Virus record (IMG/VR): IMGVR_UViG_3300028888_000115
Location: 1 to 64,000 of that record
Strand: one strand, 5' to 3'
Source: a virus
Taxonomy: Duplodnaviria; Caudoviricetes
DNA: 64,000 nucleotides
The notes beneath the pieces were generated by a model. That model was not told where the DNA came from. It worked only from the letters and a program-made list of their open reading frames with translations, and did no database searches. Within the stretch, counting starts at the first letter, position 1. Every line of letters begins with the position of its first letter. The translations under genes and the position numbers were made by a program. Shown piece after piece: positions 1 through 27,393 of the stretch.

Positions 1-1287
1 TACGGTTTTTGTAATATCTTCTTCATCAGGCTGCGGTTTTTGAATAGTGCTGTTAATATAAGACTGCATGCGAGAGGCAGATTCAGACTTCATGCGGTCC
101 GTGGTGTGACCGTAGATGTCCAAAGTAAATGCTGCGCTGGCATGACCGAGATTTGACTGCAGAGTCTTGTAGTCATCTCCGTTTTGCAAAGAGATGGTCG
201 CAAACGTGTGCCGCAGATCATGAACCCGGCTCTCGGACATGTCGAAGTCCGCTGCCATCCTTTTGTAGTGCTTGTAGACGACTTTCGGATTTATCGGGGT
301 TCCAAGCTCCGTCGTGAAGATCAGTGCGGTCTTTCTCTCTTTATCGTTCTGGTATCCTTGCCACAGTTCTCCGGCTTCTTCTTTTTGCCGGTCCTGTTCG
401 TCATACCGGTCAGTAAACACATCGACCAAAAAGTCTGGCATGCTCAAATATCGGATCTCGTCATTTTTCAGAGGAGCGAAGGTATATCCACCATCCGCAA
501 CCGGACGCTTCTGCAACTGCTGGTAAAGCTTTATGGTCTTGGTCTTGTAATTGATACAGTCCCACGTCAGACCTATAGCTTCCGACTCCCGCATTCCTGT
601 GAACAAATAGACCAGATAGAGAGACCGGTATTTCTCTTTGTCCAGCGCTTCGAGGAACGCTTTGACCTGGTCGTCGGCCAATGGAATAAATTCATATCGA
701 TTGACACGCGGTTTTGTCGTTCTGGACGATGGATTGTATTTCAAGTAGTTGAGTCGGATCGCGTCATTCAGACATTTTGAGAGAACACAATGCACGTTCT
801 TAATAGATTTAGGGGACAAAGGCTCTTGTGTGACAATTGTTTCTTTCTTTTCTTGATCACGGCGTCGAACAGTTTTTCCGTTCTCTTCCAACTGATTATA
901 GAACAACTGAATTTTTTCTGTGGTCAGATCGGATAGCCTGACTTCTCCGAGAGCAGGCTTGATGTGCGTGTTCAATTGGGCCCTGTAGGTTTTCTTTGTC
1001 CGGTACTTGATATCACCGCAGTATTTTTCAATCCACAGGTCTGCCCACTCGGACACTGTCATCTTGGATGGGTCAAAGTATTCTTTCTTGCTGACTTGCA
1101 CGGAAACATCCTGCATTTTTTCTTTGACCTCTTTTTGCGTGTCGGCAGAAAAGGACTTCCTGATCGCTTTTCCTGTGATCGGATCATACCCGACAGTAAC
1201 CTTTGCTTCCCAATAAGTATATGTTTTTCCGTTCACAGTTCGCGTTCTTTTGCAGATTGTACCTTCATTATTTGCGCGTCTTTTCAT
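1..1287 (-). CDS. int: Tyrosine recombinase / phage integrase (3' end runs off window)
   Basis: Hand translation, not in ORF track: N-term MKRRANNEGTICKR...GYDPITGKAIRKSFSADTQKEV; C-term HDLRHTFAT...LGHASAAFTLDIYGH (HxxR, H, catalytic Y); start 1287 and C-term in same frame. Confidence 0.95.
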   Translation of the reverse strand, partial: MKRRANNEGTICKRTRTVNGKTYTYWEAKVTVGYDPITGKAIRKSFSADTQKEVKEKMQDVSVQVSKKEYFDPSKMTVSEWADLWIEKYCGDIKYRTKKTYRAQLNTHIKPALGEVRLSDLTTEKIQLFYNQLEENGKTVRRRDQEKKETIVTQEPLSPKSIKNVHCVLSKCLNDAIRLNYLKYNPSSRTTKPRVNRYEFIPLADDQVKAFLEALDKEKYRSLYLVYLFTGMRESEAIGLTWDCINYKTKTIKLYQQLQKRPVADGGYTFAPLKNDEIRYLSMPDFLVDVFTDRYDEQDRQKEEAGELWQGYQNDKERKTALIFTTELGTPINPKVVYKHYKRMAADFDMSESRVHDLRHTFATISLQNGDDYKTLQSNLGHASAAFTLDIYGHTTDRMKSESASRMQSYINSTIQKPQPDEEDITKTV

Positions 1288-1914: not shown

Positions 1915-2227
1915 TCGACACCTTACCGGCAAGAAGATTAGATTCTAAAGCAGAGTAGAAGTCGTCGTACTCCACGGACGTCAGGACGCTATTCAGCAGC
2001 ATAATATCGGCGATAGCGTCCTGATGCGTATATCCGCCATAGTAGAACTTAGAGCAGATCGCATCCAGATAGTCGACCGTCAATTCCGGGATCTCCGTCT
2101 TTGGACCGAAGTGCTCCAAGACAATCGTAACGCAGCCGTCTGAGTCAACGTAGATAGACTTCGCGTGCAAACTGAAAGTGAGCTGGATATCTCTGGCAAT
2201 CAGGACGGAGTTGTTTTTAGCCCTCAT
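1889..2227 (-). CDS. Hypothetical protein co-transcribed with repressor
   Basis: 112 aa ORF overlapping repressor stop. Confidence 0.6.
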   Translation of the reverse strand: MRAKNNSVLIARDIQLTFSLHAKSIYVDSDGCVTIVLEHFGPKTEIPELTVDYLDAICSKFYYGGYTHQDAIADIMLLNSVLTSVEYDDFYSALESNLLAGKVSIISSPIFQ

Positions 2228-2570
2228 ACTTTCTGAGAATCAGATCAATGACATCGCGGTCTTCCTTTGTGGCAACGGAATAGAGGTCAGAAATCTTCTT
2301 GATGTTCTCCGGAAGGTTTGCGTATCGTGACGTTTCACGTCCGACCAGCCAGTCCATTGAAACATCAAAAGTATCACAGATCCGCCAAAGCGCTGTAACG
2401 TCTGGCGTTCTCTCTGTGAGATACCGCGTTACGGTTGTTGGGGCGAGACCGCAGGCAAGAGCAAGGTCCTTCCCGGTATAGCCGTATGCGTCCATCAAGC
2501 TTCTGAGATTGCACCGGAAAGGTTCCCAGTCGTACCCGTCAGTATTGCGATATTTTAGGTTCTGAGCCAT
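2217..2570 (-). CDS. XRE-family HTH repressor (CI-like)
   Basis: LRSLMDAYGYTGKDLALACGLAPTTVTRYLTERTPDVTALWRICDTFDVSMDWLVGR; AGGAG RBS; divergent from main early promoter. Confidence 0.85.
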   Translation of the reverse strand: MAQNLKYRNTDGYDWEPFRCNLRSLMDAYGYTGKDLALACGLAPTTVTRYLTERTPDVTALWRICDTFDVSMDWLVGRETSRYANLPENIKKISDLYSVATKEDRDVIDLILRKYEG

Positions 2571-2599
2571 AGTGAACACTCCTTTTCTCAGGTATTCTT

Positions 2600-18445: not shown

Positions 18446-18485
18446 ATCCCGCAAGATCCTCAGGACCCTGCGGGATTTTCTTCTT
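18446..18485 (+). terminator. Intrinsic terminator-like hairpin
   Basis: AATCCCGCA / TGCGGGATT followed by T-rich run; between convergent genes. Confidence 0.55.
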
Positions 18486-18696
18486 CAGATGAATCCGGGA
18501 CACAATGGATTATTTCACTGATATCACAGTTCAGCAGGTTACATAGACGAGTCATAATCTCCCATGAAACAAGCTCACCATTGCGTATTTGCTGGACGTA
18601 GCTTTCTCCTATAAGTTTTTCCTTCCTCAAACGATAGGTGGTATACCCTTTGCTTTTGAGGGCAGATAGGACATCGATTTTGTAACGGATTTGCAT
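18460..18696 (-). CDS. Cro/C1-type HTH (HTH_26-like) regulator 1
   Basis: IRYKIDVLSALKSKGYTTYRLRKEKLIGES...RLCNLLNCDISEII; GGAGG RBS. Confidence 0.85.
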   Translation of the reverse strand: MQIRYKIDVLSALKSKGYTTYRLRKEKLIGESYVQQIRNGELVSWEIMTRLCNLLNCDISEIIHCVPDSSEEENPAGS

Positions 18697-21252: not shown

Positions 21253-21456
21253 ATGGAAAACGAAGACATGATCAGCACCAAGAATCCGGAACCGTTTGTC
21301 ATCCACGAGGAATACTACCAGCCTTCCGAAAGAGCGCCTATCTTCGACGACCTGGAAGCTCTCTTGGAAGGAGCAGCAAAGCTCCACGAAGCGCATGATT
21401 TCGGTCACGCGGTCGGCCTGGTCTATCTTGCACTGGAAAAGGTGCGCTCAGTCTGA
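21253..21456 (+). CDS. Hypothetical protein
   Basis: GAGG RBS. Confidence 0.6.
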   Translation: MENEDMISTKNPEPFVIHEEYYQPSERAPIFDDLEALLEGAAKLHEAHDFGHAVGLVYLALEKVRSV

Positions 21457-21684
21457 AGACGCGGCCTTTTCAATTTTGGAGTCCGGGACGTATTCGATAA
21501 GCTTTCCGGGTTGCTTGCCAGTGATAGCGCAGATCCGGTCAAGCGTATCAAACGAGATGGACTTGCTCTCCTGAATGTTCCGGACGGTTTGAACGCCGAT
21601 AATCTTTTCGCGGCGCAGACGATAGGTGGAATACCCGCAATCCTTCAAAAGCTGGATCGGGTCAACACGCCAACGTATAGCCAA
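21448..21684 (-). CDS. Cro/C1-type HTH (HTH_26-like) regulator 2
   Basis: AGGAGGTG RBS plus TTG; IRWRVDPIQLLKDCGYSTYRLRREKII..TLDRICAITGKQPGKLIEYVPD; paralog of 18460 gene. Confidence 0.85.
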   Translation of the reverse strand: MAIRWRVDPIQLLKDCGYSTYRLRREKIIGVQTVRNIQESKSISFDTLDRICAITGKQPGKLIEYVPDSKIEKAASSD

Positions 21685-21710
21685 TATATCACCTCCTGTA
21701 AGGGTATATA

Positions 21711-21744
21711 TACTAATTTTAGTACATAAACGAAATTTTGTCAA
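21711..21744 (-). promoter_or_regulatory. Promoter of HTH regulator 2 with palindrome over -10
   Basis: Minus TTGACA-17bp-TAAAAT; TACTAATTTTAGTA palindrome 21711-24. Confidence 0.7.
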
Positions 21745-21782: not shown

Positions 21783-23177
21783 GTGCGCGCTACAATGGGC
21801 GAAAACAAATTAATTATCAAAGACCACAATCTTGAGGCCTATGACAGAGTGAGAAGACGATTTGAGAAAAGCAAGAGAACGTGTGTCATCAACGCTACCG
21901 GCACAGGTAAAGCTTACATTGCGCTTCAATGCATGCGTGACTATCATGGCAAGAAAATATATATTACATCGTATATGGCAAATCTGAAAGAGTTCCAAGA
22001 AAAAGCGAACATATATCTCGGTGAAACAAACACAGATTTCTTGATCTATGCAGGAGTCAAAAACTATCTCCCAAAACTACGAAAAATGGAGCTGAAGCCA
22101 GAACTTATCATTTTGGATGAATTTCACAGGGCTGGGGCAAAAAAATGGGGAGAAAATTTGAAGAAGATGTTAGCGGCCTGCCCAAACGCAAAGGTTTTGG
22201 GATTAACAGCAACTGAAATACGTTATCTTGACAACGAACGAGATATGGCTAATGAGTTATTCAATTCTGATATAGCTTATAGATTGCCATTAGACGAGGC
22301 ACTAATGAGAGGAATTCTTCCAGAACCTCAGTATTCTGTTTGCATTTACTATGACGACGAAGTTGAAAAAATGGAAAGGCTGATACAAGAGGGAAAGGTT
22401 GCTGACATTGAGAAGTCCAAAAAGATTTTAATGGCTGCAAAAAAATACCTCGAACACACAAAAGGGATTGCCGACTACTTTGATGAGATGATGCAAAACA
22501 AAAATGGAAAGTATATTGTCTTTTGTCAAGACTATAAGCACCTCCAAAGGATGAAAGAAGAAAGCCGGAATTGGTTTCATCATAGAGAAGTTCATTATTA
22601 TGAAATGTACTCAGACGACGACATGGCATATGAAAACATGAAGCAATTCGAAAAAGATAACAGCAATCTGCTAAGGCTGCTTTTTGTGATATCAATGCTG
22701 AATGAGGGGGTGCATATAGATGGAGTGGATGGCTGCATTTTGCTTCGCACAACGAAAAGCGCAAATGTCTACTTTCAGCAGATCGGTAGAGCGTTAAGTA
22801 CTAACCGGCACGAATCACCGCTTATCTTGGATGTTGTGAACAATGCAGAGAATCTCAATCAGGCAAATCATTTTTGGACCGGCGTTCGCAAGAAAGCGGG
22901 AAAGAAAGCAAAAAGAAAATCAGGTCGGCAACCAGAATTTCACGTCAGCGTTTTTGGAGAAAACAAAGATCTGGCGTTGCTAATCGAGGAGTTCTACCGG
23001 CTCAAGCAAGATGATGATAACTGGAGTGAAGAAGAATTAAACATTCTCAAAAAAGAATTTCCAAAAATAGGAAGAGCCGTTTTCTTCTATTTAGAAAAGA
23101 AGACGCCGTTCGAATGCTATAAAAAGGCAAAAGAGCTTGGACTTCCTACAGGATATGCAACATTAAGCTTTAGGTAA
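21783..23177 (+). CDS. Stand-alone SF2 (DEAD/DEAH, ResIII-like) helicase
   Basis: ATGTGKA, LDEFHR, GLTAT, LNEGVHIDGVD, FQQIGRAL; visibly AT-richer than flanks. Confidence 0.88.
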   Translation: MRATMGENKLIIKDHNLEAYDRVRRRFEKSKRTCVINATGTGKAYIALQCMRDYHGKKIYITSYMANLKEFQEKANIYLGETNTDFLIYAGVKNYLPKLRKMELKPELIILDEFHRAGAKKWGENLKKMLAACPNAKVLGLTATEIRYLDNERDMANELFNSDIAYRLPLDEALMRGILPEPQYSVCIYYDDEVEKMERLIQEGKVADIEKSKKILMAAKKYLEHTKGIADYFDEMMQNKNGKYIVFCQDYKHLQRMKEESRNWFHHREVHYYEMYSDDDMAYENMKQFEKDNSNLLRLLFVISMLNEGVHIDGVDGCILLRTTKSANVYFQQIGRALSTNRHESPLILDVVNNAENLNQANHFWTGVRKKAGKKAKRKSGRQPEFHVSVFGENKDLALLIEEFYRLKQDDDNWSEEELNILKKEFPKIGRAVFFYLEKKTPFECYKKAKELGLPTGYATLSFR

Positions 23178-23205: not shown

Positions 23206-23255
23206 AATATTTGTACACAATGCGAATAGAAAAAGAGACGAAAATGTGGTAATAT
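23206..23255 (+). promoter_or_regulatory. Conserved-box promoter P2
   Basis: AATATTTGTACACAATGCGAA-TAGAAA-17bp-TAATAT, TGn extension; operator copy at 23293-23308. Confidence 0.7.
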
Positions 23256-23333
23256 ATAGACGCTGGCGGGGCCAGTAATTTGATGCCTGATAGATGCTGC
23301 GAAGCATTCGCCAAAGGCTGATTGGAGGACTCA

Positions 23334-23522
23334 ATGAGAAGGAAACTGTTCGCCGCTTCCGGTTCGTGTTCCGCCGAGGAAAAGATCATTGAGGGCCGCG
23401 TAGTAAATCAGATCACGTTTGTCAGCAACGAGTTCACGGGGACAATGGACGGGCAAGGCTTTTGGGATGATCTGGCAAAGCTGGCGCGGGAAAAAGGAAA
23501 GTATATCAGGCTGGTGTACTGA
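23334..23522 (+). CDS. Small hypothetical protein
   Basis: GGAGG RBS. Confidence 0.65.
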   Translation: MRRKLFAASGSCSAEEKIIEGRVVNQITFVSNEFTGTMDGQGFWDDLAKLAREKGKYIRLVY

Positions 23523-23549
23523 GACAAGCTGCTGCGAAGGAGGATAGCG

Positions 23550-23930: not shown

Positions 23931-23945
23931 GGGAGGGACTCTGTG

Positions 23946-24194
23946 ATGGAAGGAGCAGGCTATGAGGTCCGGTATCTGGTACCGACTGCGGAGGGAAACC
24001 AGAAAGAGCACTCCCTGACGGTTGGAAGCTATCAGGAATACGCGGGCACGATCAACATGTGCAAGAAGCTTGGATACAAGCTGGTCATCAATCCGATGTG
24101 CACCAGATGCGCCAGTCTCGGGCATGACTGTCATGGTGAGGCCAATCACGTCTACACCGGCTGCGTGTCTCGCAGGGTTGCAAGACATGTTTGA
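23946..24194 (+). CDS. Small Cys-motif protein, paralog 1
   Basis: NPMCTRCASLGHDCHGEANHVYTGCVSR. Confidence 0.7.
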   Translation: MEGAGYEVRYLVPTAEGNQKEHSLTVGSYQEYAGTINMCKKLGYKLVINPMCTRCASLGHDCHGEANHVYTGCVSRRVARHV

Positions 24195-24423
24195 GTTCCA
24201 CTATGAATATCTGTGCGCTGCCGGGTGGCGTGAGGAAAAGGTCAAACAAATTGAGAGTTATGCGCAACTTGACGATCTGACGGCGGAGTGCCAGAAGAGA
24301 GGATGGACGATTCTCGAAAATCCGATTTGCCGGAGCTGCGCCAAGTTTCCGGAAGAATGTCCGGGAACGAGAAATCACATCTGGACAGGATGCGTCAACA
24401 GGAAAGAGAGGGTGAACACATGA
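24187..24423 (+). CDS. Small Cys-motif protein, paralog 2
   Basis: NPICRSCAKFPEECPGTRNHIWTGCVNR. Confidence 0.7.
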   Translation: MFEFHYEYLCAAGWREEKVKQIESYAQLDDLTAECQKRGWTILENPICRSCAKFPEECPGTRNHIWTGCVNRKERVNT

Positions 24424-25475
24424 CGGAGAAAGAAATGCGGGCAGAGATGACGGAAAAGATGCTGAGTGGGGAAGGAAGGGTCTATCTGGATGCGATCACT
24501 TGGAAGTCCGACCGTCTCCAGTGGCTTCTGAAGGAATCGGAGACGAGAAACAAGAAACTCTCCGAGGTGACCGGGATCAGGGAGAGCTCTCTGAAGATGT
24601 ACGAGTCCGGATGGGCAAAGCCGGGGCTTGGGGCGATCATCAAGCTTGCGGACTATTTCCACGTTCCGGTGGATTTCCTGCTTGGCCGGTGCTCGGAGCG
24701 GGAGGATAATGAAATCTTCGAGCACTTCGCGGACTATTTCAGGGTCCTGCGAGACGCGTCTTATGACGCATATCTGATCAACAAGTACGCCGGTGACGAC
24801 TACATCAAGAGCGATAAGGTCTTCTCATGGCCGTACAACTTGGTAGAGAACATCTACCGCGTGGAGGGAAACGAGGCGGTGGAATGCAGCCTTGACGGTC
24901 TCAAAGAAGCGATCTCTACTCTGACAGACAGAGAACAGCGCATTGTTTACATGAGGTATCGGGAGGACATGACGCTGGATGAGATTGCGGCAGAAGAACA
25001 GGTAGGCCGCGAAAGAGTCCGGCAGATCCTTGCAAAAGCGTGCAGGAAGCTACGACATCCTACCAGAATTCGCCTGATCCAGTACGGGATTGCCGGGACG
25101 GAGAAGCTTCGTGAGCTTCGGGACAGGGAGCGAGAAATCGTCGCCCGGGAGCAGGAACTTGATGACCGGGAGGCCGCGATTGCGGAGCGTGAAAAGGCGC
25201 AGGGCGTCCCAGTGCCGGAAAAAAAGGAACCGGCAAAGCCGGATGAACCGCTGAGCAACCTGCGGCACGAGATTGAGGATTACGACCTGTCGGTCCGGTC
25301 CTACAACTGCCTGAAGCGAGCCGGATGCAAAACCATGGAGGACGTTGCGAAGGTGGCGGAAAGCGGGGGCCTGCTGAGAATCCGGAACATGGGCAGACGG
25401 TCGGCAGAAGAAGTGCTTGGGGTTCTGAAGGAAAAGTGCGGGCTCGATTACTCGGCTCTCTACTTTGCAGCCTGA
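24420..25475 (+). CDS. XRE HTH - sigma70 region 4 - RNAP alpha-CTD fusion protein
   Basis: IIKLADYFHVPVDFLLGR; LTDREQRIV..MTLDEIA..VGRERVRQILAKACRKLRHP; IEDYDLSVRSYNCLKRAG..IRNMGRRSAEEV. Confidence 0.88.
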   Translation: MTEKEMRAEMTEKMLSGEGRVYLDAITWKSDRLQWLLKESETRNKKLSEVTGIRESSLKMYESGWAKPGLGAIIKLADYFHVPVDFLLGRCSEREDNEIFEHFADYFRVLRDASYDAYLINKYAGDDYIKSDKVFSWPYNLVENIYRVEGNEAVECSLDGLKEAISTLTDREQRIVYMRYREDMTLDEIAAEEQVGRERVRQILAKACRKLRHPTRIRLIQYGIAGTEKLRELRDREREIVAREQELDDREAAIAEREKAQGVPVPEKKEPAKPDEPLSNLRHEIEDYDLSVRSYNCLKRAGCKTMEDVAKVAESGGLLRIRNMGRRSAEEVLGVLKEKCGLDYSALYFAA

Positions 25476-27326: not shown

Positions 27327-27393
27327 ATAGATGCTGGGGGCGGTCCTCAGCGGCCTTCGGGCCTTGGCTTTTGAGTGGAAAGTGAGGTTTCGG

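Follow-up and report, generated by a model that had tools for sequence, protein, structure and literature searches.

We analyzed the first 64 kb (the window) of a 75,457-bp IMG/VR virus record (IMGVR_UViG_3300028888_000115; Duplodnaviria; Caudoviricetes; CheckV completeness 80%), in which a plus-strand gene at positions 24420 to 25475, stop included, codes for a 351-aa protein, P0001, with an XRE-type helix-turn-helix (HTH), a sigma factor region 4, and the C-terminal domain of an RNA polymerase alpha subunit (alpha-CTD). The open frame spans 24288 to 25475, and the credible start is the ATG at 24420, which comes after a ribosome-binding site (GGAAAGAGAGGG) and overlaps the stop codon of a 78-aa upstream gene (ATGA); relatives of 351 to 352 aa have the same start point and the same 4-base overlap. 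The gene sits in an early/accessory operon that runs between two of the five promoters in the window that share a conserved upstream box: P2, which heads the operon, and P3, which marks its end.

The original prediction, made from the sequence alone, had named these three domains, and all of them score above their Pfam cut-offs, with structure matches in agreement; the strings it quoted (TLDEIA..VGRERVRQILAKACRKLRHP, LSVRSYNCLKRAG, and IRNMGRRS) are all present in the translation. The XRE/Cro-CI domain (residues 35 to 87; positions 24522 to 24680) matches HTH_3 at 27.2 bits against a cut-off of 23 and has the five-helix DNA-binding fold of that family; an RstR-like NCBIfam model also matches it, at 45 bits, which is below the cut-off of 80. 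A helical middle region of unknown fold follows (residues 93 to 146; 24696 to 24857), which holds the motif WPYNL at residues 137 to 141. Sigma-70 region 4, with both 4.1 and 4.2 and the recognition helix GRERVRQILAKACRKLRHP, occupies residues 161 to 220 (24900 to 25079), of which residues 164 to 213 match Sigma70_r4 (60.6 bits versus 24.1; E 1e-16). A charged helix (214 to 260) and a disordered Pro/Glu/Lys linker (261 to 277), as delimited by an AlphaFold2 model (25059 to 25250), lead to the alpha-CTD at residues 278 to 338 (25251 to 25433), recognizable from LSVRSYNCLKRAG and RNMGRRS and from its RNA_pol_A_CTD score (60.1 bits versus 23.8; E 1.7e-16). No other region 4 and no other alpha-CTD is encoded in the record.

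In a search of solved structures, the alpha-CTD part matches the Bacillus subtilis alpha-CTD (E 9e-13), and the best matches to the region 4 part are exclusively primary sigmas (Escherichia coli RpoD, Staphylococcus aureus SigA, and Clostridioides difficile SigA; E 2e-11 to 6e-11), which bears out the suggested kinship with RpoD/SigA. The AlphaFold2 model, built with 49 homologues, has a mean pLDDT of 82 and a pTM of 0.45 and shows three separate folded modules: the HTH (30 to 88), a long helix (93 to 122), and a short helix bearing the WPYNL motif (139 to 146) in the N-terminal half, then region 4 (158 to 211), a 47-residue helix (214 to 260), a disordered segment (261 to 277), and the alpha-CTD (278 to 340). 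Because the model consists of three loosely joined domains, Foldseek returned nothing at E<=0.001 for the model as a whole, and the domain-wise results were used: 1z3e_B alpha-CTD (root mean square deviation [rmsd] 1.6 A), 6onu_F SigA region 4 (rmsd 2.1 A), and 3op9, an XRE regulator. By inspection of the sequence, helix 214 to 260 has one Leu or Ile per heptad and is possibly a zipper through which the protein dimerizes. In these alignments, R199 and R201 are the equivalents of sigma70 R586 and R588, and R293 is the equivalent of alpha R265.

The name that NCBI gives to a 97% identical protein is "sigma-70 family RNA polymerase sigma factor", which arises because the generic model TIGR02937 passes its cut-off (45.2 bits versus 42.9) on region 4 alone (profile positions 97 to 165). 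Pfam finds neither region 2 nor region 3 in P0001, and Sigma70_r2 has no match in the 75-kb phage record, nor in another five records of phages that encode a family member; three of those five are 99 to 100% complete. P0001 thus has the region 4 of a sigma factor and lacks its region 2, and because region 2 is absent from the protein, the phage, and its relatives, the label is wrong. Likewise, the C-terminal domain has the R265-region determinant of an alpha subunit (with Arg as the K298 equivalent here), and the N-terminal assembly domain (PF01193/PF01000) has no match, so that the C-terminal domain alone is recognized; NCBIfam rpoA models score 45 to 55 bits against cut-offs of 228 to 523. 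Without region 2 and the alpha N-terminal domain, P0001 is neither a sigma factor nor a polymerase subunit. NCBIfam has no model for a family with the HTH-Sigma70_r4-RNA_pol_A_CTD arrangement, and the public sigma-factor annotation hides it.

P0001 belongs to a family defined by colinear, full-length similarity with all three domains in order. An exhaustive HMMER scan of 1.84 billion representatives, clustered at 50% identity, yielded 184 clusters at E<=1e-30, and among the best 150 representatives nearly all are 320 to 370 aa long and align in one piece over query residues 27 to 348. A word-index search returned 294 matches, about 50 of them with all three Pfam domains and about 70 shorter, with region 4 and alpha-CTD only; some of these two-domain forms bear another N-terminal domain, such as HTH_17 or DUF551. 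The ESM Atlas holds at least five three-domain clusters of 55 to 222 members labelled Viruses/Uroviricota, and the family members found in IMG/VR lie in phage genomes of 35 to 292 kb. On these searches, the family is large and restricted to viruses. INPHARED phage records gave no match spanning more than one domain, and therefore the family is not represented among the named phage records of that collection. A scan of genome contigs with an alpha-CTD pattern, which returned cellular rpoA, found the closest cellular alpha-CTDs in Clostridia, at 54 to 57% identity.

Region 4 of sigma reads the -35 hexamer, and the alpha-CTD reads A/T-rich UP DNA. To follow the residues responsible, E. coli numbering was mapped via Protein Data Bank alignments, and conservation was scored in 149 representatives with mutual identities of no more than about 50%. 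The -35 readers of sigma70 are strongly kept (E585 85%, R586 95%, R588 89%, Q589 95%), and R584 is Arg in 59% and Lys in a further 13%. The DNA determinant of the alpha-CTD is well retained (R265 99%, N268 93%, C269 83%, G296 98%, S299 82%), with Lys or Arg as the K298 equivalent in 81%; a set of homologues extended to the two-domain forms agrees. Surfaces for protein contacts are also largely preserved. The equivalent of sigma R603 is Arg in 105 of 149, and the equivalents of alpha 258, 259, and 261 are acidic in about 70%; acidic alpha 258-261 and sigma R603 were reportedly described by Ross et al. in 2003 as mutual contact surfaces on DNA. The alpha-CTD also keeps the equivalent of B. subtilis Y263 (Tyr or Phe in 126 of 149), plus C265 and K267, which we take to be the Spx and ComA contact surface. 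The activator-contact residues of region 4 (K593, R596, K597, and R599) are 73 to 91% conserved, and the F563 and L607 equivalents are conservative (Tyr and Ile). A family-specific element, (P)WPYNL, lies between the HTH and region 4, with P138, N140, and L141 invariant or nearly so in the 49 homologues and the motif more than 90% conserved in the 149. Because alternative sigma factors vary freely at the reading positions of region 4.2, we read the conservation as selection for recognizing a TTGACA-type hexamer and for binding an A/T-rich minor groove.

The conserved promoter module occurs five times on the plus strand of the window, against 0.00 expected by chance, which agrees with the five boxed promoters originally mentioned. 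P1 (18758 to 18806) consists of the box, TTGATA, a 17-bp spacer, and TATACT; P2 (23207 to 23255) has the box at 23207 to 23226, a -35 of TAGAAA at 23227 to 23232, and a -10 of TAATAT at 23250 to 23255 after TGG; P3 (27278 to 27326) and P4 (38586 to 38634) both have TTGCAA after the box and, 17 bp further on, TATATT and TAAAAT, respectively; and P5 (45482 to 45530) has TTGAAA, 17 bp, and TATACT. Matching places in three relatives bring the total to 17 box promoters in four syntenic phages, and the relatives' proteins are 79%, 57%, and 49% identical to P0001. The remainder of the phage record (L085) has no box. The whole consensus extends from about -84 to +6, and the box proper, from -58 to -36, abuts a non-consensus -35; it does cover the -35/UP zone as had been proposed. 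The upstream part of the consensus carries one A-tract around -77 and another from -57 to -53, and TTTGTGCA at -52 to -45; then follow (A/T)TGCGAA at -42 to -36, a TTGnAA-like -35 that is never TTGACA, a spacer of exactly 17 bp, and a good -10, which TGn precedes in roughly half of the 17. Among the invariant positions are the TTG or TG of three hexamers, which begin at -51, -42, and -35. By comparison, two promoters without a box, at 2659 and 62802, match TTGACA-17-TATAAT perfectly.

Some further features of the box promoters were noted. A sequence across the predicted start, TAGATGCTGG (-4 to +6; for example, 27329 to 27338), is conserved in all 17 as well as the -10 is and may be a conserved initial transcribed region or a leader signal; a G-rich stretch comes after it here and in L004, L086, and L087. 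We considered TTGCGA or TTGTCA at -42 as a second -35, and this is left as a suggestion, since the element is often ATGCGA in the 17 promoters; only its TG and two trailing A are invariant. We also considered a GTACA-centred palindrome within the box as the site of the XRE domain; this reading is weak, as the core in the relatives is mostly GTGCA and the flanks are asymmetric. Downstream of P2, about 290 bases (23262 to 23549) separate the promoter from the first conserved operon gene, compared with about 75 in relatives, and one bovine-gut contig skips 279 bases at this place and has 65 other letters instead. The segment has the look of an insertion here and may include a 66-aa open reading frame (23322 to 23522).

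The reading that we favor, at a probability of roughly 45%, is that P0001 is a phage regulator that binds promoters in imitation of polymerase's upstream half, and that within this lineage its targets are the box promoters. Such a regulator would combine an XRE HTH with a captured primary-sigma region 4 and a captured alpha-CTD and would bind DNA directly as a free-standing mimic; direct binding is the most likely mode because both captured modules keep their DNA-reading residues. Each chain, possibly dimerized via helix 214 to 260, would carry three weak reading heads, whose tight binding would require one composite site with a TTG-type hexamer, a flanking A-tract, and an XRE site at the right spacing. 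The best candidates for such sites in the lineage are the box promoters, where TTG stands at -51 and -42, the A-tract spans -57 to -53, and the -35 is non-consensus, and because the gene sits behind one of them, the protein would regulate itself. That one polypeptide could read the -35 and UP elements together, as first proposed, is strengthened by the conservation of contact residues in about 150 members, and stays conditional. Three functions had been offered for it: action on P1 to P5 is favored, because the box accompanies the protein and a three-module reader should need a composite site, and blocking of host promoters or titration of host activators is less so.

As to the direction of regulation, we lean, weakly, toward activation. 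The protein would occupy the box, where the alpha-CTDs of polymerase normally sit, and would hold polymerase through the natural contact between alpha-CTD and region 4, having kept the surfaces of both partners. The main reason for the lean is that the pairing of a weak -35 with a conserved box upstream usually marks a promoter as helper-dependent. The domains, the family, the conserved residues, the anatomy of the promoters, and the co-occurrence within one lineage are shown here, whereas DNA binding, target sites, and direction of regulation are inferred.

The box and the protein occur together in all four phages of the lineage, and in these phages neither the region 4 helix nor the DNA residues of the alpha-CTD vary, as is true of the box itself. 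Several observations nonetheless weigh against our reading. Two distant three-domain relatives have no repeated box within 10 kb, so that the link to this particular box is lineage-specific, the co-occurrence having been seen within one lineage; in the flanks examined, the distant relatives L005, L006, L089, and L090 likewise have no such box in repeated copies. In the box-bearing relative P0010, the XRE recognition helix differs at five of nine positions while the box is nearly unchanged, and thus this domain may have no part in reading the box. Rival box readers, equally good as candidates, are encoded by two small HTH_26 genes on the minus strand: one, at 18463 to 18696, lies divergently just upstream of P1, and the other, at 21448 to 21744, lies in relatives directly upstream of the P2-type box and in this phage is separated from P2 by a helicase gene (21783 to 23177); both are conserved in the lineage. 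The box promoters are reasonable sigmaA promoters in their own right, matching at four or five of six positions per hexamer, with TGn in about half, which fits repression equally well, and an activator whose gene lies behind the promoter it targets has to be supplied initially in some other way, such as read-through. Finally, the conservation partly reflects the collection of homologues by similarity; the word-index search favors shared words, and HMMER does so less but is still similarity-ranked.

A rival explanation has the opposite sign of regulation, a promoter-occluding repressor or shut-off factor, with region 4 on a real -35 and the alpha-CTD on UP DNA in competition with polymerase, either at phage early box promoters after they have fired or at strong UP-dependent host promoters such as those for rRNA. 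This alternative is somewhat unlikely but draws on much of the same evidence: the conservation of DNA-reading residues applies to it equally, the gene's place in an early/accessory operon would give negative autoregulation, the N-terminal HTH resembles RstR-type phage repressors, and an extended -10, present in about half of the box promoters, makes these less reliant on the -35. Staphylococcus phage G1 gp67, which sits on sigmaA region 4 and blocks alpha-CTD/UP contacts, illustrates a workable shut-off of this kind (PMC3694059). However, operator-controlled promoters are usually strong, whereas the -35s of the box promoters are systematically non-consensus next to the perfect box-less ones, and general binding to host promoters leaves unexplained the extra HTH (HTH_3, HTH_26, or HTH_17) that most members have.

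A different route to the same promoters would be docking on polymerase, with the phage region 4 taking the place of sigmaA region 4 on the beta-flap tip, or otherwise sitting on core, so that polymerase gains an extra alpha-CTD and a phage HTH and is redirected to the box promoters; this would be a novel kind of sigma appropriation. Regions 4.1 and 4.2 are complete and primary-sigma-like, as this would require, with conservative F563 and L607 equivalents, and phages are known to remodel or displace region 4, as illustrated by T4 AsiA/MotA (PMC2988021) and by two region 4-displacing inhibitors found with AlphaFold 3 (bioRxiv 10.64898/2025.12.17.695035). Nonetheless, we regard docking as quite unlikely: sigmaA region 4 is tethered and therefore at a very high local concentration, and there is no sign of a higher affinity for the phage copy; strict conservation of the DNA readers is not needed for flap docking alone; and, as a speculation, the invariant WPYNL helix could cover the flap-binding groove intramolecularly. 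Also unlikely is a form in which the chain of phage region 4 and alpha-CTD either replaces sigmaA region 4 on the flap or aligns beside it on the tandem TTG hexamers, which would give polymerase a phage-specific reading head, re-address it to a class of phage promoters without a new sigma factor, and amount to a novel phage takeover of host transcription.

The protein might instead be a decoy, in which free alpha-CTD and region 4 soak up host or phage factors that normally bind these modules, such as Spx-type regulators, class I and class II activators, or anti-sigma-type proteins. The preserved Y263, C265, and K267 positions of the alpha-CTD and the well-conserved K593, R596, K597, and R599 of region 4 would suit this role, but it requires neither residues that read DNA nor a sequence-specific HTH nor any set order of domains, and titration at 1:1 demands high expression, so that we consider it very improbable. 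It is hardly credible that P0001 is a genuine sigma factor or supplies the region 4 portion of a split one: the NCBI name and the 2-bit margin of TIGR02937 speak for it, and the confinement of that match to region 4, with regions 2 and 3 not in the protein and Sigma70_r2 not found in the record or the five other family-bearing phages, speaks against it.

Comparison with the cellular parents shows what a mimic of the upstream half of polymerase would have kept and lost. P0001 shares with primary sigma (RpoD/SigA) the 4.1/4.2 fold, the RERxRQI recognition helix, and the RKLRHP tail, with a four-residue deletion in the 4.1-4.2 loop; it lacks regions 1.1 to 3.2 and hence region 2 core binding, -10 recognition, and melting. 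With the alpha-CTD of polymerase, it shares the fold, the R265/N268/C269/G296/K298/S299 determinant, and a preceding flexible linker, but without the N-terminal assembly domain it cannot be built into polymerase. The N-terminal HTH_3 is held in common with XRE/Cro-CI and RstR-type repressors, in which an oligomerization or peptidase domain ordinarily follows the HTH, where P0001 has polymerase modules. Artificial chimeras of alpha and sigma70 region 4 were reportedly used by Dove and Hochschild in bacterial two-hybrid work, in which a tethered extra region 4 on an auxiliary -35-like hexamer upstream of the core promoter is said to activate. The box here has such hexamers; those chimeras, in contrast, are fused to the alpha N-terminal domain and built into polymerase.

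Phages control the host polymerase by small binders, covalent modification, new sigma factors, or polymerases of their own. Among such systems, gp67, AsiA/MotA, and the region 4-displacing inhibitors are the nearest functional analogues of P0001, and none is homologous to it or built from polymerase parts. G1 gp67 is an early phage protein that acts at the same junction of sigmaA region 4, alpha-CTD, and UP DNA; its sequence is unrelated, it binds the host region 4, and it has neither polymerase-derived domains nor an HTH. T4 AsiA and MotA are early factors that alter reading of the -35 zone and direct host polymerase to box-bearing phage promoters (PMC2988021); they are two proteins without homology to P0001 and remodel the host region 4, supplying no second copy. 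The original statement that no characterized example was known stands: a full-text literature search, which most subscription journals lie outside the reach of, found no description of a fusion of region 4 and alpha-CTD. The family is uncharacterized and widespread and falls within the phage control of promoter recognition. If our reading is true, the capture of the promoter-reading modules of polymerase, seen in well over 100 divergent virus-only clusters, would be a further general phage strategy, one with implications for the cooperation of region 4 and alpha-CTD on DNA away from polymerase. The model is testable, having three separable reading heads and defined target promoters.

Here and in eight other phages, which are all the cases examined, the family gene lies among arrays of small early/accessory genes of unknown function or beside recombination genes. 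Late-gene activators of the RinA/ArpU type, which have a region 4-like HTH, are typically encoded just upstream of packaging genes, and a position directly upstream of a terminase/structural module is found neither here nor in those eight phages. One relative, L086, has antirestriction and anti-CRISPR-like genes (ArdcN, AcrVA2-like) in neighboring operons. Immediately upstream of the P0001 gene are two paralogous plus-strand genes in tandem (23943 to 24194, 83 aa; 24187 to 24423, 78 aa), the second of which is translationally coupled to it; both products end in a Cys-rich C-x2-C ... C-x-G-x2-NH-x2-TGC, and relatives have three such genes (L003:9298-10004). The Cys-rich proteins have no Pfam match and might be zinc-binding partners.

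This gut phage looks temperate, with an integrase gene (1 to 1287, minus strand) and a CI-like HTH_3 repressor gene (2217 to 2579, minus strand) at the left end of the window, where the perfect-consensus, box-less promoter at 2659 faces a long run of plus-strand genes. It is also large, since contigs of up to 147.7 kb carry a protein identical to P0001; the window itself has 14 tRNA genes. Within the long plus-strand block, no genes but the two for HTH_26 proteins are on the minus strand; each of them borders a box-promoter region on its upstream side, and the second has its own TTGACA-17-TAAAAT promoter (21744 to 21716). The plus-strand helicase gene next to it (ResIII/Helicase_C) is present in L087 and absent from L003/L004 and L086, a pattern that makes it a mobile insertion within the lineage. 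Relatives at 95 to 99% identity are low-depth contigs in sheep and bovine gut runs, and gene fragments occur in one run filed as a metatranscriptome; because contigs show neither transcription nor transcript starts, neither was used as evidence.

Two phages with variant family members have repeats of other kinds. In the phage with a two-domain member, about 14 intergenic copies of TTGAAAAATCT(A/G)yA..AAtAT stand directly before ribosome-binding sites (L088:2100-11000), which leaves too little room for a -35/-10 promoter; they may represent a promoter or an RNA signal peculiar to this phage. In the phage with the HTH_17 variant, a dense array of iteron-resembling repeats of about 26 to 31 bp, GCAAAGGAATGGC-like (L090:12685-13174), may be a replication origin.

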